From a virus: a DNA stretch of 27,321 bases. Below, piece after piece: positions 7,847 through 27,321 of this stretch; within the stretch, counting starts at the first letter, position 1; every line of letters starts with the position of its first letter. The position numbers and the translations under genes are program-made. The stretch lies in UHGV virus genome UHGV-0288412; one strand, written 5' to 3'. The notes under the pieces are model-generated. The model was not told the origin of the DNA. It saw only the letters and a list, made by a program, of their open reading frames with translations, and made no database searches.

Positions 7847-10273
7847 TTACATCTTACGACGCTGAACGTCTTCTATCGCCTGAGCAACAAACTTAGCGTG
7901 ACGTTTGATAGCATCCATGACCATCTTGTCTGAGCTATTAACGTTGCCGTTAATGTTCAAAGGCGCATTAACTTCAATCGGCTGAGAGTTGCCACCTGAT
8001 TTTTGAGCAGCAAGGAAGTCTTTCAAATCACCGTTAGTACGCTGATCAACTACTCGTTCACCCTTATCAAGCAACCATGTACCCTCACGCGGGATGTTAT
8101 CGATACCATCATGAGCCATACCGCTAACGTTAGTAGACTTGATGTTTGCGATGTTCCCCATGTTCTGAGAAACAGCCAATGCAGCAGCAGCGATCTTTTG
8201 TCCTGTGGTAACGTTGGTCGGATCGTTCCATGCATCGGTAGCAGCCGTCCACATGTTCACCGTCGCTTGTCCGATAGAGAATGCTTTATGAGCATTGAAA
8301 GCCATCTGCATAGCTTTAGTGTTTTCCTGCCCGAAGAGAGTCATTGCAGCAGCAAAACCGCCATACATATCATCGGCTATTGACTGTCGAGCATCAGCAT
8401 ATTTCTTCTCAATTGCAGCCATTCGTTTTTGATGGTTTTCATTGAGTTTTTCTAATGCTTCCATCCGTTTAGCCGGATCATTAATACCGTCAATCTTGAG
8501 TTTATCGGTCTTATAATCTTGTTCAGCATCCGATTTCTCTTTATCGATTGCATTAAATTTAGCAAACGGATTATTTGAGTCCTGATAGTCTAAGCTATTG
8601 GTCAACTGATTGGTTTTAAAACCATCCATTCCATGCAAAGAATCTTCAATCTGTGAATAACTTTGTTCGGTATCATTCACACGGCGCATATATTCTTCGT
8701 AGGAGATAGCCTTACCATCAAGTAACCGTTTATGGCTTTCTAACTCATTGTCCCTGATTTGTTGCAATTGTGTTAAAGCATTCAGAGCATCAACCGGATC
8801 AGCACCTAAGATCATTTTGTATACGTTTTCAGTATTCTGATCGATTAAGGATTGGCGTTTCGCGGCTGCGTCTTGCTGAGAGATTAAGCCCAGATCTAAA
8901 GCAGTATCCAAATCTTTCAAGCTGGCTTCTAACTGCTTGTTTTGAGAAGCAATAGACGCGGCGACTTGCCCTTGCAATTTAACATCAAGTGCATTCAGTC
9001 GCTTGATTGCATCCTCACGTTCTTTCTGTGCTTTTTCTGCGGCTTCCTTAGCCTTTTTAGCTGCCTCTTCCGCTTTCTTGCGCGCTTCTTCCTCGGCTTT
9101 CTTCTCGTTGCCAGACTTACCCAATGAAGCTGGTCGAGTTGGTGTAGTCGGGATAGTCAAATCACGGTTAGGATCTGCCTTGCGGGTTAGATGTTCCCCG
9201 TTATCGACAACAATCAGAGAGCCATTTTTCTTATAAGAATCACCAAAACGTTTCTTAAATCCTTCAACATCAAAGCCAGCAGTACGAGGATCGACACCAG
9301 CACCACGGATCGCGGCCTTTTCCCAATCTGCCAGATTATTCCAACGCTTTTCTTTATTGTACTTGTCAATAATCTTTTGAGCGTCTTTATGGTTGGTGTT
9401 AAGAATACCACCAGTTGCGGTCTTGCCTTCTTTATTCAGTCGATCTAATGCCCTGAATAGAGAACTCTTTTCCCAATCAATATTAAACCAGTCAAATAGC
9501 CAGTTTAAGCTATCAACCAAAGGACCAGTAATGGTCATGCCGACACCTTTCAGGTTATTTTCCAGCTTATTAATATTCTGAGAAAATTTATCATATTTTT
9601 TAGCGTTTTCTTCGGTGACGTTAACAGATTGATTCTGAATAGCGATCATCGCCTCTTGAGCACTATTATATTTCTCAAGCTGGCTGGTCATATGGCTTGA
9701 ATCACTGGATAAAGATTCCATCATGAACTTGATTTCAGCCATTGATTTTCCGGCTTTCTTCATGTCATAGAACACTTGGATCGCCGCTTTCATACCACCT
9801 TGCGGATCTGTCATGAAGTGAGCATAGTTTTCTAACTTAAGACCAACCGATTCTAAGTCATCAGCAATACCACCACCGTTAGCCCATGCATCACCCATTT
9901 TATCTAAGGTGTCTTTGTTGATATCACCAAATTTTTCAACTGTTAGGCCAGTGCCAGAAAATTCCTTTTCCAGTCTTTGAAGGGATTCAATCGAGAGTCC
10001 GGTCGCCTTAGATACTTCTGAATACTGTTTAACGTATTCCGCACCAGCTTTAGCGGCTGCAACCACTGCGGTCGCAACTAAGCCGATACCACCAGCAGCC
10101 AAACCAGCAGAGCCAGCGATCCCACGAAGAGATCCAGTCAAACCAGACAAGCCACCACCAAAATCAATACCACTTGCCTTTTCAGACAAACTATCGAGAA
10201 GGTCGGCGGCTTCACTGGTACTTCTCCTTAGACCTTTATTATCCCCTTCTATTGTTACTATATGTTTTGTCAT
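7847..10273 (-). CDS. Tail tape measure protein (808 aa)
   Basis: Long, Ala/Gly-rich N-terminus with Gly-rich hydrophobic stretch, extended charged coiled-coil segments (AEEEARKKAEEAAKKAKEAAEKAQKERE); lies immediately after the G/T chaperone pair. Confidence 0.8.
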   Translation of the reverse strand: MTKHIVTIEGDNKGLRRSTSEAADLLDSLSEKASGIDFGGGLSGLTGSLRGIAGSAGLAAGGIGLVATAVVAAAKAGAEYVKQYSEVSKATGLSIESLQRLEKEFSGTGLTVEKFGDINKDTLDKMGDAWANGGGIADDLESVGLKLENYAHFMTDPQGGMKAAIQVFYDMKKAGKSMAEIKFMMESLSSDSSHMTSQLEKYNSAQEAMIAIQNQSVNVTEENAKKYDKFSQNINKLENNLKGVGMTITGPLVDSLNWLFDWFNIDWEKSSLFRALDRLNKEGKTATGGILNTNHKDAQKIIDKYNKEKRWNNLADWEKAAIRGAGVDPRTAGFDVEGFKKRFGDSYKKNGSLIVVDNGEHLTRKADPNRDLTIPTTPTRPASLGKSGNEKKAEEEARKKAEEAAKKAKEAAEKAQKEREDAIKRLNALDVKLQGQVAASIASQNKQLEASLKDLDTALDLGLISQQDAAAKRQSLIDQNTENVYKMILGADPVDALNALTQLQQIRDNELESHKRLLDGKAISYEEYMRRVNDTEQSYSQIEDSLHGMDGFKTNQLTNSLDYQDSNNPFAKFNAIDKEKSDAEQDYKTDKLKIDGINDPAKRMEALEKLNENHQKRMAAIEKKYADARQSIADDMYGGFAAAMTLFGQENTKAMQMAFNAHKAFSIGQATVNMWTAATDAWNDPTNVTTGQKIAAAALAVSQNMGNIANIKSTNVSGMAHDGIDNIPREGTWLLDKGERVVDQRTNGDLKDFLAAQKSGGNSQPIEVNAPLNINGNVNSSDKMVMDAIKRHAKFVAQAIEDVQRRKM

Positions 10274-10276
10274 AAA

Positions 10277-10627
10277 TTACCCCGTTTGTGCGCTTCTGAG
10301 TTTCTCAAGCAAAGATGGATCGAACATGCTCAATGTTGCAGCTTTACGTTCTTCTTCTTTCTTGCGTGCAAGTTCTTCCATTTCTTCTTTAGTTTTAAAG
10401 AGTTTTTCTTCTCTAATTAACTGGAATTGGCTAGGCTTGAGTTTCTTTGCAGTTTCGCGTGTCATTCCTTGCGACGTCATATACATGGAATATTGCAACA
10501 TCGCATTCTGCATATCATGAAACGCGGGGCTTTGTGGTTCTAAGTAGGTGTCGAAAATGTATAATTTCCAAAACAGAGTGATTGGCATATTATCCATTTC
10601 ATCTTTACTAAGCCCCGATCTCATCAT
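10277..10627 (-). CDS. Tail assembly chaperone, T segment (expressed as a G-T fusion by -1 frameshift)
   Basis: ORF is in the -1 frame relative to the G-like ORF and stays open upstream to 10672, overlapping the last 5 codons of G; gene order matches lambda G/G-T/H. Confidence 0.55.
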   Translation of the reverse strand: MMRSGLSKDEMDNMPITLFWKLYIFDTYLEPQSPAFHDMQNAMLQYSMYMTSQGMTRETAKKLKPSQFQLIREEKLFKTKEEMEELARKKEEERKAATLSMFDPSLLEKLRSAQTG

Positions 10628-10656
10628 TTGCCGGAAATAGAAATTCAGAAGCGGGT

Positions 10657-10663
10657 TTACTTT
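10657..10663 (-). promoter_or_regulatory. Candidate -1 frameshift site A-AAG-UAA at the end of the G-like gene
   Basis: Minus strand reads GAG GUA AAG UAA; tRNA-Lys on AAG can re-pair on AAA in the -1 frame, and the following stop would slow the A site; the -1 frame then continues VNPLLNFYFRQMMRSG... into the T ORF. Confidence 0.45.
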
Positions 10664-10965
10664 ACCTCGTTTTCAATTACTGCCGGATCTTGCATCAATG
10701 ATGCTTGAGCAACCAAACCGATTAATTCACTGCGGACGTTAGTATACAGTGCCTTAACTTGTTCCATAGATTCAAATACTGGCTTACCGTCTTCATCTTC
10801 AATACAACGAAGAATCGAACGTTCATCACGGTCATCTTTATCGGTATTGAAAACATGTTCGTTAAATTCTTTTACTGACATAGGGCGAGCATAGAAAGTG
10901 AATCCACCGATGGTCAGAGATTCACGTTTCGGAGAAAGAGCTTTCAGCATTTCATTAATATTCAT
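10657..10965 (-). CDS. Tail assembly chaperone, gpG-like (102 aa)
   Basis: Small acidic protein immediately upstream of the T segment and tape measure gene; ends ...ENEVK-UAA. Confidence 0.55.
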   Translation of the reverse strand: MNINEMLKALSPKRESLTIGGFTFYARPMSVKEFNEHVFNTDKDDRDERSILRCIEDEDGKPVFESMEQVKALYTNVRSELIGLVAQASLMQDPAVIENEVK

Positions 10966-11007
10966 TCTTGTTTCCTCTTAAGTTAATTCGATATGTTTAT
11001 TTAGAAT

Positions 11008-11514
11008 TTAAGAGATTTTCAAAGTCTGCTTAGTGCCAGTCTTCTTAATGTTGGTAAGGAAAGCAGCCGGAGGATTGCTTAACCAATAGTAATGAAAACC
11101 ACTTTGCATACTGTTATAAGGAACAGTGACAGCAGCACCACCCAAATTAACGGTTATATTCCCCGCTCTACCGTTCTGGAGATATACAGCCATAGTAGGA
11201 GTACCGCCATTGAATTGACCAACGATAACGCCAATCAGACGCCCTACGCCCACGTTTTCGGGGTTCTCCATAGATCCTTTACCGCGCATGTCAGTTACTG
11301 GATAGTTTGAAGCAGTTACACCCCAGTTATTACCCAATGAAGTAGACCACGCAGCAGTAGCTACAACCGTATCCATACCACGACCACACATCGCACTCAT
11401 GTTAGCTGGGCGACTAACCTTTAATGCGTTCATTGCTGCGCTCATCCATCGTTGACCAGTTACAGAAACAGCAGATGACCCGACCCAGCCAGGCTTATTA
11501 ACGACATTCGCCAT
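11008..11514 (-). CDS. Hypothetical Gly/Ala-rich protein (168 aa), probably tail-associated
   Basis: Clean ORF with GGAG Shine-Dalgarno, between the upstream terminator and the G-like gene; no motif recognised. Confidence 0.4.
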   Translation of the reverse strand: MANVVNKPGWVGSSAVSVTGQRWMSAAMNALKVSRPANMSAMCGRGMDTVVATAAWSTSLGNNWGVTASNYPVTDMRGKGSMENPENVGVGRLIGVIVGQFNGGTPTMAVYLQNGRAGNITVNLGGAAVTVPYNSMQSGFHYYWLSNPPAAFLTNIKKTGTKQTLKIS

Positions 11515-11527
11515 TTTGATTACTCCA

Positions 11528-11558
11528 ATAAAAAAGCCCCACCATTAAGGCAGGGCTT
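11528..11558 (-). terminator. Rho-independent terminator (copy A)
   Basis: Minus strand AAGCCCUGCC-UUAAU-GGUGGGGCUU followed by UUUUUU; a 10-bp stem with two G-U pairs. Near-identical to the terminator at 17364-17390. Confidence 0.7.
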
Positions 11559-11562
11559 ATAA

Positions 11563-11688
11563 TTAATCTTTAGCCTTGCGGCCTCGTTTTGCTGTGGCTT
11601 TCGCCGTAACTTCTTCTACTTCTGGAATCACCACCGCTTCATGTTCCGGCAGTGGTTCCGGTTCTGGTAAAGGAAGTTCTTCGTTAGT
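11563..11688 (-). other. In-frame 41-codon extension after the UGA stop of the 157-aa gene (candidate readthrough product)
   Basis: After UGA (11689-11691) the same frame reads TNEELPLPEPEPLPEHEAVVIPEVEEVTAKATAKRGRKAKD before UAA at 11563-11565; verified codon by codon. Confidence 0.55.
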
Positions 11689-12162
11689 TCATCCAGCGGT
11701 AAACACTTCCTGTTTCAGCGGAGCACCATCAACGGCAAAGGTAAACTCTTTAGTTACCACTTCTTCATCGCCACCGTTCATAGCAACTTTAGAAATGAAG
11801 CCGTTGTAAGCAATGCGAATACCAGTCTGTTTTCCGGCGTCAACATAATACTCTACTTTGATCTGGCAGCGAGTGCCGTCTTCGGCAGCTTTTGCGAGCT
11901 TCTCGTGTACCGCATCACCTGGGATGTAGTTAACGGTCAGAGTCAGATCTTCAACGTTCAGTTTACCAACCAGCTTACGGTTATACTGAGAAGAATACGA
12001 TTTGACTTCTACCGTACCGCGAGACAGTGAATATTCAGGAAAACCAGCACACTCTTTAATTTCTTCGTATGCTTCATCGGCAAGGTCGGTGTTAGTGGTA
12101 TCGGCGTGATAGAACAGACTTACCAGACCACCAGTAAAAATATCTTTGAATTGCTGAGACAT
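11689..12162 (-). CDS. Structural protein, possibly tail-tube-like (157 aa), ending at UGA
   Basis: Follows the fibre gene; pattern VGKLNVEDLTLTVNYIPGD...QIKVEY loosely resembles the core of the V-like protein at 15794-16627; ends VFTAG-UGA in the context GCUGGAUGAACUAAC. Confidence 0.45.
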   Translation of the reverse strand: MSQQFKDIFTGGLVSLFYHADTTNTDLADEAYEEIKECAGFPEYSLSRGTVEVKSYSSQYNRKLVGKLNVEDLTLTVNYIPGDAVHEKLAKAAEDGTRCQIKVEYYVDAGKQTGIRIAYNGFISKVAMNGGDEEVVTKEFTFAVDGAPLKQEVFTAG

Positions 12163-12219
12163 AGAATTACCCCTTAATTAAAATTGTTTATAACGGGGGA
12201 ACTAGTCCCCCGACTTTTA

Positions 12220-12561
12220 TTATTTAGTTGCTTTCAGTTCGGCAATTTCTTTCTGTAATGCTTCGATCTGTGCTTTATATTTGGCGTCCATTTCCTGCAT
12301 AGCCTTGATGATTAAAGCATTGACAGCAGAGTTAGAAATAGTCTTGATTGCTTCTGGATTTTCTGGATCATCGGTGGATTGAATACCTACTGCTTCCGGC
12401 AATACTTCTTCCAGATCCTGAGCAATAATACCTACTTCGCGTTTAATCACACTACGGTCTTTAAGAGATTTAACTTTATCGTAGGTGTAGACTTTCAGTG
12501 AGTTTACTTTCTCTAATGCGCCGTCCTGTAATTCTTCCTTGTTAATTTTCAAACGGGAGTC
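12220..12561 (-). other. Intramolecular chaperone domain of the tail fibre; predicted autocleavage at the S/D junction in RSDSRLK
   Basis: Conserved S-D-x-R-L-K-x-N motif at residues ~1052-1059, followed by a coiled-coil C-terminus (AQIEALQKEIAELK). Confidence 0.6.
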
Positions 12562-15500
12562 AGAGCGAATGTAAACATCGTTAAAGCTACCGTTACGACC
12601 TGCGGTAAAGTCACCAGCAGCGTTAAAGTCAAAGTTAGTATCATGAACATGGAGACGAACAAGAGCGTTACCGATAGTACCGCTAGGAACATGCACACCC
12701 ATTGCTGCAATGTGATATTTACCTTGATGGGTTGCTTTCCAGATGTTATGAGCGGAATCGGTTGATTGCTGGCAGTCGACCTGAATACCGGAAGCACGAT
12801 CACGCCAGCTAGCCCAACTACCACCAGCAACGCTACCACGAATAAGACCATTACCGCCACCGGATACAGTGCCCGTTTCAAGGTGAATCATCTTACCGCC
12901 GAATTTCCAGACTTCGGCTTGTTTCTCACCGCGCATACGCATAACACCAGCATCATCGCAGTACAACAGACCCAACTCTAAGCCGTTTGGATCTCTAAAC
13001 CATAAATGCTTGTTACCGCTTCGTTTAAATTCAATATCAGCACCGTTGATAGTGATATTACCGCCAGTGTGAATTGCTTTAGGCTTAACAGTACCGTTAA
13101 TGGAAAACTCGATTAATTCAGTACCCGGACCACCCGGTCGTTGTGTGTACCAGTGCCAACCGCTTTCATCAGCGCATTCGAATACTTGTTTACGAGCATC
13201 AGCACCCCATGCACGAATATTAAACGTTGATGTGGCGGTCCCCTTACCCCAACGAATTTGTCCAGCAGCTTCCAAATCACCGAAGAATTTAGTTTTAATC
13301 GCACCAGTTGCTAAAGTACGTTCAGTGGTGAAGTGTGCACCTTTGCTATCGTCAAGCTGTAGGATGTTATCACGAGCGTTATTACTATCGCCCCAATGGT
13401 TAAACCGGAAATAATCACGAGAATTTAATCGTCCAGCATCAAAGGTTAACATCCCATTACCGACATAAATGTCACCCGCAAAACGAGCAGCACGGCTATC
13501 TCTTTCGAGAACTAATGCACCTTCGTTACCATCACCACCTAACGTAACTTTACCCGTTGACAGGTCGTAAATGAATGGTCGGTTGCCGTTCCAACCACCA
13601 AATTTATCGTTTTCAGCAGTAGACAACAAATATACTTTTTGACCATCATTACGCCAGAATGCACCGTAGTTACCATAGATCATACGGAATGCGTTAGCGT
13701 ATGCAGCAACATATTCGCCGTTGGTGTATACAATTTTTGTTTTGCCAGTGGATAATGAAACCTGACCGTTCTCATCTAGACGTAATGAGTTATTACCTTC
13801 GGTTAATTCGTTTACTAGCTGCAACGTGTTAGTAGTTCCATCACCATAGCCTAGATAACCTTGACGGCGGTTAGCACCACTACGATAATCCATAAACTCC
13901 ATGTAGTTGCTTTGTCCGGTGCGTCGTTCCATTCGGATAGCATTATTGCCCTTAGTGAAAAGACGAACAACGGAAGTTCCGTTAGAGTCAATTCTTAATT
14001 TCTCGTCGGCATCAGTAGTACCCGTTGCTAGGCGATAGGTGCTACCTTCAACAGTTTCATGCCATATGGTCTCTACGGCTTGGCTACGGAATTTACGCAG
14101 ATATTTTTTAGCGCGTTCTTGTGTATTACTCAAACTTACAATATCGTAAGTTGCTTGTGAGTTATTATCAAAAGACAGAGTACCGCGTTTATTTTCAGTG
14201 TTAAACAGAGTAATAACTCGACCTTCGTTAACACCAGTAGACGGTTTAACGAGAGTTAATTCAGGCGTATCATACACATTTAAAGTCACATCAGCACTTT
14301 TACCGTACTCTACAGTTACTTTATCGGTATATTTGCGATATTTCACGTATACATCATAGTTATCGCCAGAAGTATTGACCGCAAAGGTTTCAAATTCATT
14401 ATTAGTATTTCGACGATAAGCTACAACGTTTACACCTTTCGGGTTTCCATTACCGGAACGGATAACAATTTCTACAATATCACACTGATCAGGACTATTA
14501 ACGTTATAACCATTCCCACCGAAAATACGGATGAAAAAGCCTCGACCACCTTGTGGAATTGTTGCCGTTGCCAGTTTAAAGTAACCAGCCGCATTTTCAC
14601 CAGTTGACATATGAACGGGTTTAGTGAACATCTGATCAACTTCGGCTTTACTATACACACCCAATTCAGTCGGAGTCGGCTTATCACCTTCGTGATACAT
14701 GCGGTAGCTGAATCGCTTATTACCATCTTTATCAAAGCCATAGGTTTTAACTTGAGATGAGCTAGACCCATAGTGGAACTCAAAACCGCGACCGTGTGCT
14801 TTACCGCCAGAATGAGGAATGTTAAGGATTAAGTTACCCCAACCTTCGGCATTGTTTGGACGGAATGCACCAAAATAATCAAGGTTACGAGCACCAGCAT
14901 CATCAAAATAGTTAGCTGTTTTGGTTAACAGATAGCCGTGATGGTAAGTGTTGGTATTCTTCTTGATGTAAGCAGCATCGGCACTACCTTCAATCGAATC
15001 AATTCGCTGGTTAGCTGCGGCAATTGCGGCATCAGTAGAAGATTTATTCTGGTCTACCTTGTTGTTAATTGCGGTATGGTTGCTATTAACAGTGCCAGTA
15101 AGATTGGTGATCTTCGTGTCGGCATCGCGTTTATTATTTGCTACGGTCGTTTCTATGGCTGATTTATTTGCTGCGACAGTATTCGTTAAGTTGGTAACGT
15201 TGGTATTAGTCTGATCAACTCGCGCATTAATATCTGTCTTGTTCTTGTTAATTGTCGCGTTGATAGTATCGCGGGTTGAAGTAATAGTCTGATTCAGTTC
15301 AGTCTTAGCAGCCGCCAGAGCGTTAGCCGCTTCGGTTTTATTGTTACCTACTGTGGTAGTCAAAGCATCAATTCGTTTGTTGGCTGCGTTATCTCCAGCA
15401 GTGATTGAAGCATTGAGAGTATCACGGGTAGAAGTGATAGTCTGATTCAGTTCAGCTTTAGCACTAGCCAGATTATCAGCGGCTTCTTGTTTGTTGGAAG

Positions 15501-15717
15501 CAATAACACGGTCAGTGTTGGTTTTGTTATTGTCTACTTTCGTATTCAGTTCAGCGTGTTTTTCTGGAGAAACACTAATTTGAACTACTGCGTTATTTTT
15601 ATCTTTGGTATACAGAACGTGATCAGCAAGGTTAATAGCCAATTCACCCTGTGATAATTGTTCCGGCGTTGGTTTTTTACCAGCCGTCTGTGTGCGTTTA
15701 AATTGGATTGATTGCAT
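12220..15717 (-). CDS. Long tail fibre with C-terminal intramolecular chaperone (S74-type autoproteolytic domain), 1165 aa
   Basis: N-terminus QFKRTQTAGKKPTPEQLSQGELAINLADHVLY is a recurrent fibre N-terminal motif; long N/T/A-rich coiled-coil region; C-terminal ~113 aa beginning SDSRLKINKEEL... matches the chaperone domain of T5 L-shaped fibre and endosialidases as I recall it. Confidence 0.8.
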   Translation of the reverse strand: MQSIQFKRTQTAGKKPTPEQLSQGELAINLADHVLYTKDKNNAVVQISVSPEKHAELNTKVDNNKTNTDRVIASNKQEAADNLASAKAELNQTITSTRDTLNASITAGDNAANKRIDALTTTVGNNKTEAANALAAAKTELNQTITSTRDTINATINKNKTDINARVDQTNTNVTNLTNTVAANKSAIETTVANNKRDADTKITNLTGTVNSNHTAINNKVDQNKSSTDAAIAAANQRIDSIEGSADAAYIKKNTNTYHHGYLLTKTANYFDDAGARNLDYFGAFRPNNAEGWGNLILNIPHSGGKAHGRGFEFHYGSSSSQVKTYGFDKDGNKRFSYRMYHEGDKPTPTELGVYSKAEVDQMFTKPVHMSTGENAAGYFKLATATIPQGGRGFFIRIFGGNGYNVNSPDQCDIVEIVIRSGNGNPKGVNVVAYRRNTNNEFETFAVNTSGDNYDVYVKYRKYTDKVTVEYGKSADVTLNVYDTPELTLVKPSTGVNEGRVITLFNTENKRGTLSFDNNSQATYDIVSLSNTQERAKKYLRKFRSQAVETIWHETVEGSTYRLATGTTDADEKLRIDSNGTSVVRLFTKGNNAIRMERRTGQSNYMEFMDYRSGANRRQGYLGYGDGTTNTLQLVNELTEGNNSLRLDENGQVSLSTGKTKIVYTNGEYVAAYANAFRMIYGNYGAFWRNDGQKVYLLSTAENDKFGGWNGNRPFIYDLSTGKVTLGGDGNEGALVLERDSRAARFAGDIYVGNGMLTFDAGRLNSRDYFRFNHWGDSNNARDNILQLDDSKGAHFTTERTLATGAIKTKFFGDLEAAGQIRWGKGTATSTFNIRAWGADARKQVFECADESGWHWYTQRPGGPGTELIEFSINGTVKPKAIHTGGNITINGADIEFKRSGNKHLWFRDPNGLELGLLYCDDAGVMRMRGEKQAEVWKFGGKMIHLETGTVSGGGNGLIRGSVAGGSWASWRDRASGIQVDCQQSTDSAHNIWKATHQGKYHIAAMGVHVPSGTIGNALVRLHVHDTNFDFNAAGDFTAGRNGSFNDVYIRSDSRLKINKEELQDGALEKVNSLKVYTYDKVKSLKDRSVIKREVGIIAQDLEEVLPEAVGIQSTDDPENPEAIKTISNSAVNALIIKAMQEMDAKYKAQIEALQKEIAELKATK
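15259..15472 (-). repeat. Imperfect direct repeat (~60 bp, two copies 154 bp apart) inside the fibre coiled-coil region
   Basis: gttgatagtatcgcgggttgaagtaatagtctgattcagttcag (15259-) against cattgagagtatcacgggtagaagtgatagtctgattcagttcag (15413-); encodes AELNQTITSTRDT(L/I)NA twice. Confidence 0.65.
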
Positions 15718-15748
15718 CTAGAATCACCTCACTATAAAACAGGAATAA

Positions 15749-15766
15749 GGGAGGCGTTAACCTCCC
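15749..15766 (-). promoter_or_regulatory. Intergenic hairpin between the V-like gene and the fibre gene (possible attenuator)
   Basis: GGGAGG-cgttaa-CCTCCC with a moderately U-rich 3' side on the minus strand; placed where tube-versus-fibre expression ratio could be set. Confidence 0.4.
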
Positions 15767-15793
15767 CGCGTCATGTTTTATTTAGGAAGTGAA

Positions 15794-16627
15794 TCAATAC
15801 TCCCCGAAATCGACTCTATCGGTCTTAGCTACTGCGCCAATTTCGCTAGGTGTCGGTTTCTCATTGGTGGAATATACCTTGATCCATTCAGAACGACCGT
15901 TTTCCTGAATATTTCGGACACGTAAACGCGGTGCGCCAGAAGTATTACAGGTTAATTGCCATGCGCCATGCTCATTAGCTTGAAGGTGAATTAATGATGT
16001 GTCGGTTGAATATGGATTACCGCTAGCAGTTCCCTTGTAAGTTACGAAACGGTTTCCGGCTAATGCCTCGCTATCAATCGGACCCGTGAATGGATTTACA
16101 CCAGCACCCAAACCAAAATCACCCTGACGTAAGATCCGGCCTTCGGTAGCAATACCCCTTGCCAAAATCCCGCCATCTGGTTCAAGTTTAAATTCCAGTG
16201 TTACAGCTTTGTTATCGCTACCACGGGTTTTATGTGATGTGACGTAAGCATCATAGATGACATAGTAACCAGTGTTAGCAGCACTATAGCCAGAGTTAAC
16301 AACATAGAACATACGGAAGCGTAAAGGTGTTTTATCCTCTACCGCTTTCATCAACAATGCTTGATGTTCGTCATCCAGAACACGGTTTAATGTGAGTGTT
16401 GTTGGTTCCAGTCTACGATAACCAGCAAGTTTCCCCGTAGCGTCCTGATCGTACTCTTCCAGAGTTTCAATCTCTGTGGATTCGGTTAGCGTAGGGAATG
16501 CTGCGACGTTCTCAATAGAACTAAAGCTAGGATCGAAAAAGTCCGGCTGGCTATCGACCATAGTAGACACGGAGACTTCAACATGCGACCCCGTAAAAAT
16601 ATCTAAGTTATCATGCGTAATATTCAT
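15794..16627 (-). CDS. Major tail tube protein, lambda gpV-like (277 aa)
   Basis: EEYDQDATGKLAGYRRLEPTTLTLNRVLDDEHQALLMKAVEDKTPLRFRMFYV parallels my recollection of lambda V (ESYDDS...TATGQ...FTLAW...[20 protein letters not shown]); follows the U-like gene; C-terminal extra domain ending KPTPSEIGAV. Confidence 0.6.
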   Translation of the reverse strand: MNITHDNLDIFTGSHVEVSVSTMVDSQPDFFDPSFSSIENVAAFPTLTESTEIETLEEYDQDATGKLAGYRRLEPTTLTLNRVLDDEHQALLMKAVEDKTPLRFRMFYVVNSGYSAANTGYYVIYDAYVTSHKTRGSDNKAVTLEFKLEPDGGILARGIATEGRILRQGDFGLGAGVNPFTGPIDSEALAGNRFVTYKGTASGNPYSTDTSLIHLQANEHGAWQLTCNTSGAPRLRVRNIQENGRSEWIKVYSTNEKPTPSEIGAVAKTDRVDFGEY

Positions 16628-16636
16628 TATTACCCC

Positions 16637-17059
16637 TTAAAAACGCGCTAGATAAGAAAATTTAAGGCTAAGTGTCCCAACGATACCCCCATCACTAGAA
16701 TCATCGTCATAATCGGTATTAGAAGCTACTGGAGTGATATCTGAAATAGAGAAGCCCAAATCTTTAAAACGTGGGTTATCTGGCTGAATCTGGATTATCT
16801 GGCAAATACCCTCATGGATTTTGGTTTCATGAATCTGAGAATACAATTGCATTTCGATAACGCATTCAGCTTGCATTGCATTACCACCACGGACCCTATT
16901 GTAAGTCTCATTCATTCCGGTAATCCAACAAACCACATCATCACTAAAGCCTTGCTGAGTTTGTTCTACGTTTAAAGCCAGACCTAAATCTTGTTCGATA
17001 ATATCCTGCAAGGCGCGTTTGATTTTCAGTCTCGGCATATTATTAACGGTAGCGAGCAT
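16637..17059 (-). CDS. Tail terminator protein, lambda gpU-like (140 aa)
   Basis: VVCWITGMNETY...AECVIEMQLY...DYDDDSSDGGIVGTLSLKFSY parallels recalled lambda U (AVAVYLTGAEY...AELHIEVFL...DYRRDDDAGLWSSADLTYVITYE); position upstream of the V-like gene. Confidence 0.5.
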   Translation of the reverse strand: MLATVNNMPRLKIKRALQDIIEQDLGLALNVEQTQQGFSDDVVCWITGMNETYNRVRGGNAMQAECVIEMQLYSQIHETKIHEGICQIIQIQPDNPRFKDLGFSISDITPVASNTDYDDDSSDGGIVGTLSLKFSYLARF

Positions 17060-17333
17060 GTGTACCCCCTGCTAAAGTGATAAAGCAATCAGTTGTATTG
17101 TCACCATTGCGCTTAACGTATTGAACTTTGAAACGCTGGTTTTCTACTGTGACAATATCACCTTGCTTTAAGTCTCCCTCACGACAAAATAGAAATTCGG
17201 TTTCTGTCATTACCCCTGATTCGTCGGTAGTAGTAATTTCATGATAAGCACGAATTGATTTACCACCTTCCACCGAAAATACAGGAGCACTTCGGAACAT
17301 TCTTGATAATTGTGATTCTGATAATTTGAACAT
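17043..17333 (-). CDS. Head-tail joining protein, lambda gpFII-like (96 aa)
   Basis: FLFCREGDLKQGDIVTVENQRFKVQYVKRNGDNTTDCFITLAGG parallels recalled lambda FII (LFVRTDEVRQLRRGDTLTIGEENFWVDRVSPDDGGSCHLWLGRG); first gene after the capsid terminator. Confidence 0.45.
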   Translation of the reverse strand: MFKLSESQLSRMFRSAPVFSVEGGKSIRAYHEITTTDESGVMTETEFLFCREGDLKQGDIVTVENQRFKVQYVKRNGDNTTDCFITLAGGTHARYR

Positions 17334-17363
17334 AGTTACCCCCTTTATGGAGTATTTACATAC

Positions 17364-17390
17364 AAAAAAGCCCCACCGTTAGGCAGGGCT
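17364..17390 (-). terminator. Rho-independent terminator (copy B)
   Basis: Minus strand AGCCCUGCC-UAAC-GGUGGGGCU followed by UUUUUU; near-identical to copy A at 11528-11558. Confidence 0.7.
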
Positions 17391-17395
17391 AATTA

Positions 17396-17524
17396 TTATT
17401 CTTTAGTTTTACGTTGTTTTTTAACTGTGGCTTTCGCCGTAACCTCTTGAACTTCTTCTTCCTGAGATGGAATCAGATTTTCTTCCCCCAAATCGGGGGA
17501 AGGTTCAGAAGGTTCTACGCTAGT
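17396..17524 (-). other. In-frame 42-codon extension after the UGA stop of the capsid gene (candidate readthrough product)
   Basis: After UGA (17525-17527) the same frame reads TSVEPSEPSPDLGEENLIPSQEEEVQEVTAKATVKKQRKTKE before UAA UAA; verified codon by codon. Confidence 0.55.
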
Positions 17525-19531
17525 TCATTCAGCGGAGATGTGAAGAACTTTCAGAGCTTCCGGCTGAGTAACAACATAATCCAGGTCTACCCAGATACGC
17601 GGAACAATTGCGGACTGTGCACGGTAGGTCGTGTCGTCCATATCCAATTCCAGACCGCCCCACTCACCGATAGTAATACCGGAGAAGTCACCCAGAACGA
17701 TGTGGTCTGCCGGAATAACGCCAGAAGTAACTACATCGTAACCAGCCAGTTTGCCGTTTTCGATGATATAACCGGAAACGCCGTTATCTTTCAGGGTAGA
17801 TTCCAGTTCAGCAGCAGTTGCACCGCTCATCGCAAACTTGATCGCCTGAGCAGGAACGCCAGCGTCAGTCAGTGCTGCAATTTCTTTCAGGAAGTCTTTG
17901 TAAGAGAAAGCGGCTTTCTTAGTAACGCGACCACCGTCTACCAGTTGTTTAACCAGACCAGCCGGACCGCGAGCATTTTCTTTATCAGACAGAATCAGTT
18001 GTTCCAGTTTGATGCGAACAGCTTTGTTAATGTGATCAGTGATCAGGGTAGCGATGCCCGGAACAGTTTTCAGCGACTGACGGCTGATCGGGTTGCCACC
18101 AGCAAAAGTTTTCGGAGACAGTTTCACGTTCGCAAATTCAGCTTTGCTTTCCGGTGCAGCACCGTTTTCATCAACGAAGCCGAAAGCGTCAACGCTGGAA
18201 GCGGTCATTTTTGGAATAGCGGTCGGAGCATTCAAGCCACTGTAAACAGTCACACCGAGGCGGCCTAAAACACTCTGAGGCAACAGCATTTCTACATAGG
18301 ATTCGGTCAGCAGTTTTTCGTCGGTGATAGCAGTCAGATCGGCTTTGGTGTTACCAGCAGCAGCAGCACGCATAGCAGCAGCCGGAACGAATACAGAGCC
18401 ACCGCGAGCAGCACGACCACGCTGCATAGTTGCAGTAGCAGCCATTGCGGAATATTCAGCTTCGTTAGCACCCAGAGCAGCACCATCTACCAGAGAGCGA
18501 ATTACGTTGTTCAGGTCAAAAGTTTTTTCCATGATTTGTTCCTTATTAATTTGTTCGTTATTACGTTGAGCATTGGTAATGTTATTTAGTGCCTTAGTGC
18601 GGAATGCTTCCGGCGTCATGTCTTTAATTGCCAATGCGCGTTTTAATTCTTCGTCGTCAATATTTAGTTCCCGCGCGATCTCGCGGATTTCTAATTCGTC
18701 TTCTTCGGAACGTTCAGCCACTTCCTCGGTTTTTTCTTCTTCAACCGGAACGGCTTCACGTTCTTCTTTTACTTCTTCTGTTTCCCGAACAGTTGAACTA
18801 TCATCATCAACACTTTCAGGATGTTCAGCGTCTTTTCCGTCTTCGAGATTTTCATTTTCTTTATTCTCTTCAACTTGGCGCTCTTGAGTTTCTTCAACTT
18901 CCGATTCTTTATTTTCTTCTACCGGAGTTTCTTCAACCTGAGCGGATTCTTGTTCTTCTTTGATTTCTTCAATTTGTTCTTTAGTCATATCGCGTTTAGC
19001 CTCCAAATTAACTGTGATAGTATTTAGAGAGCGATTTAAACCGACCGTATCGTCTGCGGGAACGGTGACAAATGAGAGTTCATAGGGTGCCCACTTAGTA
19101 ACAATCAATTGCCCTTTGGCGTAATCGATGTGATATTCTTTAATGTCATAGCCGACAGAAATTTTTTCCATCGTACCTTCAATGACTTTATTACGAATAT
19201 CATTAGCCATAGTCCCATGCTTGGAGAACTTAACCAGAGCACGACCTACGTTATCCGCATCGATTCGAGCGTTACAAACGACACCAATGTGATTATCGAA
19301 ATTGTGATTGAACAGCAACGGAGCGTTATTATTCAGACGAGACAGATCAACCGCTTCCGGTGTATGTACCAGAATTTCATCTAATACCACCATTTCTTGA
19401 TTTTGCTCATCCCAGAATTGGCGCTGATAAGGCTGTTCACTGGAGAAAGCAATTTCAAATTCGTATTGATCGTTATGCCCTTCGTTAATAACTCCACCGT
19501 AACCGTTAAGATCGCGGCGAAATTTAAGCAT
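17525..19531 (-). CDS. Fused prohead protease (HK97/S78-type) - scaffold-like acidic linker - major capsid protein (668 aa), ending at UGA
   Basis: N-terminus PLLFNHNFDNHIGVV...GRALVKF...ISVGYDIKEY fits the S78 prohead protease pattern (catalytic His and Ser); central Glu-rich coiled-coil (EEIKEEQESAQVEETPVEENKESEVEE...); C-terminal ~370 aa capsid-like; follows the portal gene; AGGTGA Shine-Dalgarno. Confidence 0.8.
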   Translation of the reverse strand: MLKFRRDLNGYGGVINEGHNDQYEFEIAFSSEQPYQRQFWDEQNQEMVVLDEILVHTPEAVDLSRLNNNAPLLFNHNFDNHIGVVCNARIDADNVGRALVKFSKHGTMANDIRNKVIEGTMEKISVGYDIKEYHIDYAKGQLIVTKWAPYELSFVTVPADDTVGLNRSLNTITVNLEAKRDMTKEQIEEIKEEQESAQVEETPVEENKESEVEETQERQVEENKENENLEDGKDAEHPESVDDDSSTVRETEEVKEEREAVPVEEEKTEEVAERSEEDELEIREIARELNIDDEELKRALAIKDMTPEAFRTKALNNITNAQRNNEQINKEQIMEKTFDLNNVIRSLVDGAALGANEAEYSAMAATATMQRGRAARGGSVFVPAAAMRAAAAGNTKADLTAITDEKLLTESYVEMLLPQSVLGRLGVTVYSGLNAPTAIPKMTASSVDAFGFVDENGAAPESKAEFANVKLSPKTFAGGNPISRQSLKTVPGIATLITDHINKAVRIKLEQLILSDKENARGPAGLVKQLVDGGRVTKKAAFSYKDFLKEIAALTDAGVPAQAIKFAMSGATAAELESTLKDNGVSGYIIENGKLAGYDVVTSGVIPADHIVLGDFSGITIGEWGGLELDMDDTTYRAQSAIVPRIWVDLDYVVTQPEALKVLHISAE

Positions 19532-19576
19532 TTAATCACCTTTAATTAATTGGGGGCATTGCGCCCCCGTTGGTTA

Positions 19577-21088
19577 TTAGGGATCGGCTGGGGAATTTTT
19601 TTCTTCACCCTCGCCATTAACGATAATATTTAGTGCGCTCTTTTCGGCTTGAATCTCTGAGAATACTTTTTCAGGATCATCACCACGTTCCAATATAACG
19701 GCAGTACGTGATTTAAGTCCGTTATCAATTAAAGCAATCTCGGCGCTTACGTCTTTAAATGGATCGACGGATTCAAAACGCGGACGAATAATAGTAGTGT
19801 TATCGATAATATGTGGAATTGCAGTAATACGAATCGGAACAACACCACGCGCGGAATAATGGCGTAGATATGCTTCGAAAATGGGCGACACCACTGTTTC
19901 AATCAATTTGTTTTGCAGTGCTTTAACTCGTGTGCGCTGGGTTAATTCACCGAAACGTGCGGCTGAGTAGTTGATCTGGCTAGTGTCACCAGTCAAGCCC
20001 TGTTTAAACACGCCTAAGCCCATTGATACGCTAGTAAACATCGCATCATTGAAGCTGTTAAAGTCATCACCGCTTTGCGTCGCCTGGATGCTCTTGATCG
20101 TTGCCCCTTCCGGTAATTCCTGAATAGTACCAGGTGCAAAATCCTGTACTACTTCCGGCGCTTGATATTGTTCATCATCTTCACCAGTATCAAAATCGTC
20201 ACCAGAATCTTTCGGACGCTCGATAAAGCCCATAGAGCTAGCTGCAATGCGTTTCTGGATAATTGCAGTTTCGCGGAATGCGTCTTGATGTGCGATATCC
20301 TTAATCACTGGCAGGAAGTCAGTCACACCACGCAGGGATTCGGCGGTAAGCGGTTGATAATAATGACATACTTGCGATGCATCTACGCGATAGTTATCAC
20401 CTGTGTAAGTCTGAGTCAGTAGGTTGATTTTACGAAACCAGTATGCAACAGGGCGCATTGTGTTCACGTCATACTCCACACCTTGATATATCGCACGCTC
20501 TTTGCTTATTTCACGGTTTAGCGACCAGTCGCATTTATCAGCAGACAGGATAGAAACATTTAACTCATTGTTTTCTTTAGTTAAAACGATGAAACACTCA
20601 CCACCCATAACGCGCTCACGTTCAGCCATTACCAGCAATTCACGGAAGTTAAAACGACCATTGCGAGAGAAGCGTTTAGCATTCTGCGCCCACTTCCAGA
20701 AAGCATTCTCGATCTGCTTATTCAGTGCGCTATCAAGTTTTCCATTTGGTTTAACAACTGACGGCTTCGGATCTAGGCCAGTACCTACCACCATATCGGT
20801 GATGTATTGCGTGTAGCGACTGCCTACGGAAGTGTTTAAGGCCAGAGTACGACCCTGATCATAAAGGCGCTTACCATTCGATTTGAGAGCCTTATTGAAG
20901 GTTCCTGTAATGGTGTCTTGTTGAAGTGATCCATCAATACGATCACCAACCAGTCCTAAACTACGAGTCGCCAGAGATTTCTGGAATTTTTCTACTTGCT
21001 TATCGATGAAAATTTTTGGTTGTTGCTGGCGGTGATTAGTTTTAACTGGAGTTTCTACCGCCTTTTTGCGTCGAAAAAGATTAAACAT
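19577..21088 (-). CDS. Portal protein (503 aa)
   Basis: Size and position between large terminase and protease/capsid gene; acidic C-terminus; assignment is by synteny and size rather than a specific motif. Confidence 0.7.
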   Translation of the reverse strand: MFNLFRRKKAVETPVKTNHRQQQPKIFIDKQVEKFQKSLATRSLGLVGDRIDGSLQQDTITGTFNKALKSNGKRLYDQGRTLALNTSVGSRYTQYITDMVVGTGLDPKPSVVKPNGKLDSALNKQIENAFWKWAQNAKRFSRNGRFNFRELLVMAERERVMGGECFIVLTKENNELNVSILSADKCDWSLNREISKERAIYQGVEYDVNTMRPVAYWFRKINLLTQTYTGDNYRVDASQVCHYYQPLTAESLRGVTDFLPVIKDIAHQDAFRETAIIQKRIAASSMGFIERPKDSGDDFDTGEDDEQYQAPEVVQDFAPGTIQELPEGATIKSIQATQSGDDFNSFNDAMFTSVSMGLGVFKQGLTGDTSQINYSAARFGELTQRTRVKALQNKLIETVVSPIFEAYLRHYSARGVVPIRITAIPHIIDNTTIIRPRFESVDPFKDVSAEIALIDNGLKSRTAVILERGDDPEKVFSEIQAEKSALNIIVNGEGEEKNSPADP

Positions 21089-24667: not shown

Positions 24668-24686
24668 GCCCCTGAAATTCAGGGGC
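24668..24686 (-). terminator. Hairpin terminator downstream of the Rha-like gene; built from an inverted pair of the TTCAGGGGC motif
   Basis: GCCCCTGAA-a-TTCAGGGGC flanked by A/T runs on both sides; shares the motif of the window-end repeats. Confidence 0.55.
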
Positions 24687-24694
24687 AAAAATTA

Positions 24695-25546
24695 TTACAG
24701 TCCGAAGTGTTCCAGTGATCCAGCATTCTGACGAATCAGCAAAGCAGTATTATTGACGATTGCTCGTGAGTTATTCGGCTGTGGCAATTTCAAAGTTGCG
24801 GACTTTTCTTCTTCAAGCAATCCGAGTTTTACGAGATGCGGGATAGCATCAGCAGTGAACTCGATCTGACCGTGTGCCGACATACGAGCGAACATATAGC
24901 CAGGAGGAAGCAGATCATAGCCGTTAGGCTTACCAGAAGCATCCAGACGACGCTCAAGAACACCAGCAGTACATAACCCTTTCAGAATCATTTGTACCTT
25001 TGTAGAGCCTCGTTTTTCGCCTAATAAGCGGGTTAGACTGTGCGCGTCGATGGCTTTACGGATATGAAGATCAACCAATTGTTGTTTTTCTTGAATCAGT
25101 TGTTCTTTTTCTTCTTCAAGTTTAACCGCTTCGCGCATCCAATCGAGCTTAGTCATCTTGCTTGCATCTGGGAACGGGCTTTTATTCTCTTCTTCTTTCT
25201 TTAAAAGTTCATTTTCGAGATAATTCCAACGCTCTACTAATTTACGAGTCATTTCAGGTACGTTTTGAGCAATAAGAACAATGGAATCCAATCGCCCTTG
25301 CTTACCGGAAAAAACATAATCTTTAACTGTCTGGTTTCTGTGGTTTTTAACTTCCTCCATTGGAGGGAGTTTCACAACACCTTGATTAACAAGGCGATGT
25401 AAACTACGTTCGATATTATCAAAACGTACCCCAATAAATTCCGAAATTTCACGCAAAGTCATTCGAACATCGGAATAATCTTCGTTTGCAGCTACCGGAG
25501 AAGCAAAGAAAGTCGGTGCAGTATTCATAGTTTTAACAGTATTCAT
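24695..25546 (-). CDS. Rha-family regulatory / anti-repressor-like protein with C-terminal KilA-C-like region (283 aa)
   Basis: N-terminus VRMTLREISEFIGVRFDNIERSLHRL resembles the Rha domain signature as I recall it; central coiled coil; AAGGGG Shine-Dalgarno. Confidence 0.55.
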   Translation of the reverse strand: MNTVKTMNTAPTFFASPVAANEDYSDVRMTLREISEFIGVRFDNIERSLHRLVNQGVVKLPPMEEVKNHRNQTVKDYVFSGKQGRLDSIVLIAQNVPEMTRKLVERWNYLENELLKKEEENKSPFPDASKMTKLDWMREAVKLEEEKEQLIQEKQQLVDLHIRKAIDAHSLTRLLGEKRGSTKVQMILKGLCTAGVLERRLDASGKPNGYDLLPPGYMFARMSAHGQIEFTADAIPHLVKLGLLEEEKSATLKLPQPNNSRAIVNNTALLIRQNAGSLEHFGL

Positions 25547-27235: not shown

Positions 27236-27240
27236 CCTTT

Positions 27241-27321
27241 TCGGGGGCAAATTTCAGGGGCAAAAATTAGATTTTCAGGGGCAATTATTGGCATTTCAGG
27301 GGCAAAAATGAGGGGCAAAAT
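27241..27321 (+). repeat. Five clustered direct repeats of (T)CAGGGGCAAAA(AT), running to the window edge
   Basis: GGGGC cores at 27244, 27257, 27278, 27299 and 27312 (spacings 13, 21, 21, 13); inverted copy TTTTGCCCCT at 27189-27198; same motif forms the hairpin at 24668-24686. Confidence 0.7.

Follow-up and report, generated by a model that had tools for sequence, protein, structure and literature searches.

The DNA analysed here, referred to as the window, is the whole 27,321-nt stretch UHGV-0288412, which is part of a temperate siphovirus-type prophage and to which all coordinates refer. Its minus strand carries the gene for the 157-amino-acid (aa) major tail tube protein (11692..12162, 157 sense codons; the open reading frame (ORF) including its stop spans 11689-12162), which ends in VFTAG at a UGA stop (11689..11691) and is followed by a compact cassette on the same strand. 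The base after this UGA is always A (UGA-ACU-A), and the frame stays open for another 41 sense codons (TNEELPLPEPEPLPEHEAVVIPEVEEVTAKATAKRGRKAKD, 11566..11688), whose frame-0 translation comprises an acidic Pro-rich linker (TNEELPLPEPEPLPEHEAVVIPEVEEV) and a basic tail (TAKATAKRGRKAKD, 11566-11607). At the RNA level, the extension begins with an unpaired 10-nt spacer (ACUAACGAAG, 11679..11688), followed by a long irregular hairpin in the minimum-free-energy fold (11608..11678), closed by the helix AACUUC/GAAGUU, and by a near-invariant 19-nt core (GUUACGGCGAAAGCCACAG, also given as GTTACGGCGAAAGCCACAG; 11592..11610), which encodes V-T-A-K-A-T and contains the mini-hairpin GGC-GAAA-GCC (11596-11605). 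The extension is closed by UAA UUA UAA (11557..11565; first TAA at 11565-11563, second in-frame TAA at 11559-11557) and an intrinsic terminator (11530..11558), which consists of a stem-loop (11558-11534) with a 10-bp stem, six G-C pairs and the loop UUAAU, plus a T-run. This G+C-rich stem-loop with its U-run has the form of a rho-independent terminator, and it is the top-scoring terminator-like site in a scan of window positions 10000-20000. The 157-aa ORF ending in VFTAG-UGA, the 41 open codons and the UAA with its terminator had been described in a sequence-only reading of this DNA, and both coordinates and sequence proved exact.

A second copy of the cassette (17369..17524, minus strand) follows the gene for a 668-aa fusion of prohead protease, scaffold and major capsid protein (17525..19531, minus strand; UGA at 17527-17525), which matches Peptidase_S78 and Phage_capsid in Pfam as well as PHROG 617. 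Behind the ending HISAE-TGA, this copy has a 10-nt spacer, a long hairpin (17514-17441) and a mini-hairpin (17438-17429) within a 42-codon extension (TSVEPSEPSPDLGEENLIPSQEEEVQEVTAKATVKKQRKTKE, 17524-17399), the stops UAA UAA (17398-17393) and a terminator (17390-17369), all on the minus strand. The two terminators are near-identical, as the sequence-only reading had noticed, and are the two best terminator-like sites in the 10 kb scanned. The two copies can be aligned from 8 nt before the TGA (CCGCTG[G/A]ATGAACTA) through the T-run, with 75% identity over 93 nt of cassette alignment and no alignment further upstream, and the exact 19-mer of the core is common to the tube copy, the capsid copy and 40 IMG/VR loci. 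The claim that a single homologous unit, including the UGA context, acidic Pro-rich linker, basic tail and terminator, is attached to one head gene and one tail gene therefore holds. Segments have also been swapped between the copies, the capsid tail AKRGRKPKE of two relatives (L005, L009) resembling the tube tail, which indicates that the tube and capsid copies evolve in concert.

The 157-aa protein, previously described as tail-associated, is correctly assigned to the tail and is more exactly the major tail tube protein itself, with the fold of the N-terminal domain of lambda gpV. It matches PHROG 158 "major tail protein" (E 1e-20), and its matches to TTP_11, TTP_12 and Phage_tail_2 in Pfam and to tube_lmo2291 in NCBIfam, whose name suggests a tube family of Listeria prophages, are all under the curated cut-offs and concordant. 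Foldseek searches with an AF2 model of the protein (pLDDT 71) gave TM scores of 0.63-0.65 (E 1e-7 to 1e-6) against the lambda gpV tube domain and the tail core of YDC107, and further matches to the tubes of NF5, 80alpha and SPP1 and to Hcp. In the relatives, the tube gene lies directly upstream of genes for gpG/gpT-like chaperones and the tape measure protein, and in the window a gene for a gp38-like adhesin sits between the tube gene and the chaperones.

Taken from the window by itself, the open frame is not significant, because 14.7% (tube) and 10.8% (capsid) of dinucleotide shuffles keep a frame of this length open; the significance of the cassette comes from its relatives and from stop-codon usage. 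The sample includes the window, 17 annotated E. coli loci, 40 IMG/VR loci and one Salmonella locus, amounting to 79 occurrences and 46 unique variants, and every one of the 79 adjoins a capsid gene or a tube gene. In the window, TAA ends 23 of the 26 genes, and the three TGA stops belong to the tube gene, the capsid gene and the gene for a 277-aa protein, which has a 3-codon run-on; a long open frame is found behind the first two only. The junction reads TGA-A in 46/46 unique variants (79 occurrences), amid a preceding codon of eight forms (GGA, GCT, TCT, GGT, GAA, GAG, GAC, GAT) and a second codon after the stop of four forms. The extensions have 11 different lengths, from 81 to 135 nt and each divisible by 3, with frame 0 open in all 46 variants, and frames +1 and +2 have stops in every variant (means of 2.1 and 3.8, respectively). 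The Salmonella prophage, whose capsid is only ~60% identical, has TGA-ACT-CCT and a shorter in-frame extension, with the hairpin retained.

Genes of the family that lack the in-frame cassette end with TAA directly before the terminator, which applies to the tube genes of L014-16, L060, L062, L064/65 and DCP80/L001 and to the capsid genes of L064/65 and DCP80/L001, and the TGA, the hairpin and the open frame thus go together in every case. The cassette thus has the features of a readthrough signal, with a leaky stop kept amid variable flanks, indels in threes only and a 3' structure at a fixed distance. Judged from these sequence comparisons, there is strong indication of selection on the UGA and on the frame that follows, in a pattern that would be predicted by occasional translation and not by a purely untranslated element. 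Of the readthrough proposed in the sequence-only reading, selection on the UGA and the downstream frame is borne out by these comparative data, and the translation of the extension, which we infer from them, is likely.

In 45/46 variants, 8 nt separate the closing stop from the AGCC of the terminator, and tandem stops are usual. This fixed spacing, and the location of the terminators within a transcription unit that must be a long late operon, would also suit a scheme in which a ribosome that has passed the UGA covers the terminator's 5' half, letting RNA polymerase continue into the downstream tail genes, the peptide being irrelevant; frame conservation without amino-acid conservation would then be accounted for. 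Such a role is quite unlikely, however, as readthrough by a few per cent of ribosomes could save no more than a few per cent of the transcripts, and the conserved charge pattern of the peptide would stay unexplained. The cassette-free relatives, moreover, keep the terminator right behind TAA, from which it follows that downstream expression does not need masking.

The RNA structure of the cassette is strong in both copies. Folded without the terminator, the tube extension has z = -3.64 and the capsid extension z = -4.45, with 0/200 dinucleotide shuffles as good in either case. Nearly all variants, whether tube copies (types A and B), capsid copies (long, medium or 28-codon) or the copy from Salmonella, share one plan, which consists of the UGA, exactly 10 unpaired nt, a hairpin closed by AAC../..GUU, 2 nt and GGC-GAAA-GCC. 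The spacer has a constant length of 10 nt and is semi-conserved in sequence (ACUAACGAAG, ACUAGCGUAG, AAUAACGAAG, ACUCCUGUAG, ACUUUCGAAG). The first eight positions of the closing helix are 85-86% paired over 16-23 unique arm combinations, whereas a shift of either arm by 1-3 nt leaves only 25-54%, and 0/2,000 partner shuffles reach the observed value. Covariation was drawn from the comparison between variants that share descent and have recombined, and includes position 4 (U-A/A-U/C-G), position 5 (U-A/A-U/G-U/G-C) and position 6 (C-G/U-A/U-G) of the closing helix, two compensatory pairs in the apical stem (CUUCCCCC[GAUUU]GGGGGAAG in the E. coli capsid copy, CUCUCCCC[GAUAAU]GGGGAGAG in Salmonella), the change of GGUGG..CCACC to GGCGG..CCGCC in L044, and the mini-hairpin variant GGA-GAAA-UCC, which retains the base pair in two contexts. 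In the short capsid form, an 11-bp stem is capped by a GAAA loop. Structure placed 10 nt past the UGA explains much of the nucleotide conservation of the cassette, and no Rfam family was matched by the cassette RNA.

Minimal E. coli selenocysteine insertion sequence (SECIS) elements have a similar UGA-hairpin spacing, and the ~10-11 nt separating UGA and hairpin in the cassette would agree with UGA encoding selenocysteine. This reading is extremely improbable, since the apical loops are wholly different among the variants (GAACAUGAAG, GAUUU, AAAUC, GAAA), so that there is no conserved loop or bulge for SelB binding, and the RNA matched nothing in Rfam. Bypassing of the kind found at T4 gene 60, suggested by the GGA before the tube UGA, was rejected on reading the sequences, as the capsid copies have GAA, GAG, GAC or GAT at this position, the downstream GGA is out of frame and a hop would not require the interior to be in frame. 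An independent small ORF was likewise rejected for lack of a conserved start codon; the only candidate, GG-ATG-A, gives M-N-stop and is lost from variants whose -1 codon has C, T or G as its last base.

In its encoded peptide, the cassette keeps composition and charge. Over the 46 variants, the linker has ~25 aa with ~49% Pro+Glu+Asp and a mean net charge of -7.6, and the tail has ~14 aa with a mean net charge of +5.5 (range +4 to +6, never <+4). The basic tails are unrelated in sequence (KRGRKAKD, KKQRKTKE, KKVGRPPKAK, KKERKTKAK, KRGRKPKE). The extension, being 41 aa long and of low complexity, has no domain match in Pfam at E <= 0.1. An AT-hook, with a G-R-P core and basic flanks, was rejected because the tube tail KRGRKAKD is without GRP and has no Pfam match; GRP is confined to KKVGRPPKAK, a capsid variant that some relatives have. 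Binding of polyanions by the basic tail is speculation.

The tube proteins of Edwardsiella and Proteus have a similar tail fused without a stop (..APLATYHMNVIPEAVAAKEK) and ending in KEK, and full-length BLASTP alignments with them extend across the stop position to VIPE. Those of Salmonella and Providencia have short ..ARK/GRK/SRK tails and TAA stops. From these sequences (L060 10430-10530; P0014, P0042, P0011-P0017), a basic C-terminal tip seems common in the tube family, with or without an intervening UGA. The end of the Edwardsiella tarda capsid gene (L060 3760-3890) reads GUA AAG CAA GGG UGA, with an extension-like peptide (VIPTGREEVSVKSGRKPKTDN) in the -1 frame and a 1-nt insertion in the core (GGUCGAAAGCC). 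Its GUA_AAG motif is also found at the likely G/GT frameshift site of the window, and this single sequence may represent a frameshift version of the cassette.

The fused tails of Edwardsiella and Proteus, the segment exchange between the tube and capsid copies and the confinement of the tube copy to a sub-lineage (~20/54 genomes) would be consistent with a now functionless relic, in which a formerly fused tail was cut by a nonsense mutation or a terminator segment was passively duplicated. This is very unlikely, as many linker and tail variants exist across E. coli and Salmonella, whose capsid bodies are only ~60% identical, and no variant has a frameshift, an in-frame stop or a change of TGA to TAA. 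A recent terminator duplication lacking frame conservation, the finding that the sequence-only reading had named as damaging to it, is refuted by the relatives, across which the frame is conserved.

The prophage family was found in 54-55 of 5,426 complete E. coli chromosomes and also in IMG/VR prophage contigs (~35 kb), Salmonella, Edwardsiella and other Enterobacterales. Both cassettes are carried, for example, by E. coli PSJ-22 (NZ_AP027634), MEI003 (NZ_CP071263) and 14EC007 (NZ_CP024131). Among 50,697 phage records searched by megablast and blastn, there was no close cultured-phage relative; the only hit and thus the nearest, DCP80, has 43% aa identity in the tube protein and no clean cassette. 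A scan of species-representative genomes with an 18-mer of the core returned only three chance matches in unrelated phyla, and no capsid homologue with the extension fused via a sense codon was found in the search. The 198-aa protein P0001 (ENA contig L002), a candidate fused tube protein, was rejected because its gene call had read TGA as Trp (code-4 style) and the DNA has TGA; database entries of this kind can mimic sense-codon variants. No suppressor tRNA was found in the window or in 31 related loci. ARAGORN called a 91-nt tRNA-Gln(ttg)/tRNA-Glu(ttc) in L003 (4282-4372) and at the same place in eight other relatives, with none in the window; these calls are probably false positives, the one in L003 lying antisense inside a 140-aa head-tail gene. 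DCP80 (L001, PQ671644, 141 kb) is filed as Straboviridae, yet its head-tail module is syntenic with this siphovirus-type prophage. Two TAA stops lie on the 3' side of its capsid gene, along with a 28-codon, ATG-started ORF that includes an A7 run; the capsid frame also has a basic peptide immediately ahead of the terminator. Together these may be a degenerate cassette.

Here it is proposed, with moderate confidence, that the cassette directs programmed readthrough of the UGA, giving a minor extended isoform of the tube protein. Most ribosomes would stop at the tube UGA and release the 157-aa protein, and a minority would insert an amino acid, most likely Trp through near-cognate Trp-tRNA competing with release factor 2 (RF2), and read the 41 further codons to UAA, producing a 199-aa isoform. 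The UGAA context is associated with relatively weak RF2 binding (PMC5373646), and competition of Trp-tRNA with RF2 at UGA in E. coli K-12 results in a readthrough of ~2% at 37 °C to ~4% at 25 °C (PMC10570021). The 10-nt spacer, the long hairpin and the GNRA mini-hairpin would most likely be the parts that raise this frequency; as a separate claim, stimulation by the downstream hairpin is plausible, with our judgement falling just on the doubtful side of even. In eukaryotic viruses, a stem-loop 7-9 nt past the UGA lifts readthrough 3- to 14-fold (PMC3159437). A few co-assembled extended subunits would then equip the tail exterior with a flexible tether, acidic and Pro-rich, that ends in a tip rich in Lys and Arg, and the capsid copy would provide the same kind of display on the head. 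Exterior display on the tail is the most economical reading of the position of the extension, which begins where lambda gpV has its outer Ig-like domain. In SPP1, C-terminal additions to the tube protein lie outside the tube, and gp17.1* carries an FN3 domain (PMC8718954). External display of the extension with a role in weak adhesion is only a tentative suggestion, and we regard it as rather unlikely.

Several observations weigh against this proposal. In the extension there is no third-position bias, the variable sites by codon position being [12,8,12] in the tube copy and [12,17,17] in the capsid copy, and all five substitutions seen in the 19-nt core are nonsynonymous. The similarity of the Edwardsiella tail, when tested alone, is not significant, and RNAalifold, applied to tube type A by itself, gave no double-sided compensatory change. 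Only ~20 of the ~54 E. coli genomes with the prophage family have the tube copy, which is therefore accessory and non-essential, and all relatives are prophages, with none in the cultured-phage collection. The alphavirus-type signals have a spacer of 7-9 nt (PMC3159437), compared with 10 nt in the cassette. No bacterial precedent for hairpin-stimulated near-cognate readthrough was found in the literature. Natural E. coli RF2 is efficient, and at least one natural UGA readthrough product is undetectable in its presence (PMC5373646), which also makes a stimulatory element plausible.

The minimum numbers of synonymous and amino-acid changes are 9 vs 16 in the tube extension and 11 vs 28 in the capsid extension, and a synonymous excess, as in support of the dN/dS type, was not obtained. 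Together with the nonsynonymous core changes, the lack of third-position bias indicates weak or compositional constraint on the amino acids and strong constraint on the RNA. These properties, the invariance of the core nucleotides and the strong, conserved and covarying structure would be expected of a structured untranslated region (3' UTR) that stabilises or processes the mRNAs for the two virion proteins of greatest abundance, with the open frame being incidental. Both copies indeed lie behind the genes with the highest expression, each closing with a strong terminator, and a terminator likewise follows the capsid gene in T7. An untranslated function is nevertheless improbable, because it leaves unexplained why these genes have TGA where cassette-free relatives and 23/26 window genes have TAA, why 11 lengths are all divisible by 3 with frame 0 alone stop-free in 46 variants, why the closure is a fixed 8 nt with tandem stops, and why unrelated tails are all strongly basic.

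Long forms of both the major capsid and the major tail protein, made by frameshifting, are known from the Listeria phages PSA, A118 and A500 and Lactobacillus phage A2, and frameshift-made long forms also from T3/T7 (10A/10B) and SPP1 (gp17.1/gp17.1*) (PMC5009743, PMC8718954). As in these systems, the cassette is located at the ends of the capsid and tube genes, a minority long isoform would co-assemble, and the addition sits where tube proteins bear outer decoration domains. The frameshift systems use a +1 or -1 shift and, except for T7, add folded Ig-like or FN3 domains, whereas the cassette uses frame 0 through UGA and adds a low-complexity peptide of 28-45 aa; only the cassette is one homologous unit, terminator included, on both genes. 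Because of the frame 0 and the lack of an Ig-like domain, the cassette is not a member of the frameshift group. In phage Qbeta, host Trp-tRNA decodes the UGA that ends the coat gene with a frequency of a few per cent to give A1, a minor extended capsid subunit, which resembles the cassette in having a leaky UGA at the end of a coat gene. Qbeta, unlike the present family, is a single-stranded RNA phage without a tail gene, and its extension is folded, of ~200 aa and needed for infection. We know of no 3' stem-loop stimulator in Qbeta, and to our knowledge it is only for this RNA phage that stop-codon readthrough giving long and short virion forms is textbook material. No case of stop-codon readthrough in a double-stranded DNA phage was found in the literature. 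The readthrough signals of alphaviruses, furoviruses, tobraviruses and related viruses share with the cassette the UGA, a short conserved spacer, covarying arms and a variable, partly structured interior, but act on eukaryotic ribosomes and yield a polymerase or a coat extension, and no bacterial example is described with them (PMC3159437). Bacterial SECIS elements have a similar distance from UGA to hairpin, and the cassette is without their conserved apical SelB loop. By analogy, the cassette would be a functional counterpart of the frameshift-made long forms and of Qbeta A1, and is itself neither system.

The tail module of the window (11008-15717) is of siphovirus type and includes genes for a T4 gp37-like long tail fibre (1165 aa) and the gp38-like adhesin (168 aa), with the tube gene placed between them; in Edwardsiella (L060 5531-10528), the order is fibre, gp38 and tube. 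Relatives that have no adhesin gene behind the tube gene (L014-L016) are also without the tube cassette. In the 277-aa protein (15794-16627, minus strand), the N-terminal half matches the tube family PHROG 158 (E 1e-8), and it may be a second tube-like paralogue, whose gene has the head-tail joining genes on one side and the fibre gene on the other. Some relatives have a gene for a GIY-YIG nuclease between the 277-aa gene and the fibre gene (L015 3337-4374, L016 2967-4211), and in others the fibre gene is interrupted by IS2/IS3 elements (L013 6661-7889, L018 10715-11862). The genes for the 102-aa gpG-like and 116-aa gpT-like proteins (10277-10965, minus strand) are joined by an open -1 frame from GAG GUA AAG UAA, which is probably the usual G/GT -1 frameshift, at the GUA_AAG beside the stop. 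Direct repeats of 21 nt (TTTCAGGGGCAAAAAT..) are found three in tandem at 27239-27320 and once at 24675-24697, 2.6 kb apart, and may be operator, iteron or packaging-related sites.

For the prophage family, it is possible, although we hold it with more doubt than confidence, that the cassette represents the first case of near-cognate readthrough stimulated by RNA structure in bacteria, through an alphavirus-like signal of UGA, 10-nt spacer and extended stem-loop, in the form of a portable, terminator-bearing unit on capsid and tube genes that makes minor extended subunits, for which the Edwardsiella relative may use a -1 frameshift. In annotation pipelines, the tube and capsid genes are cut off at the UGA, which in one metagenomic gene call was read as Trp without notice. 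With the prophage family present in ~1% of complete E. coli genomes, testing material is easily obtained. If true, structure-stimulated readthrough, so far a mechanism of eukaryotic viruses, would extend to bacterial ribosomes, and the cassette would be a compact natural element of ~100 nt setting the ratio of two isoforms in E. coli.

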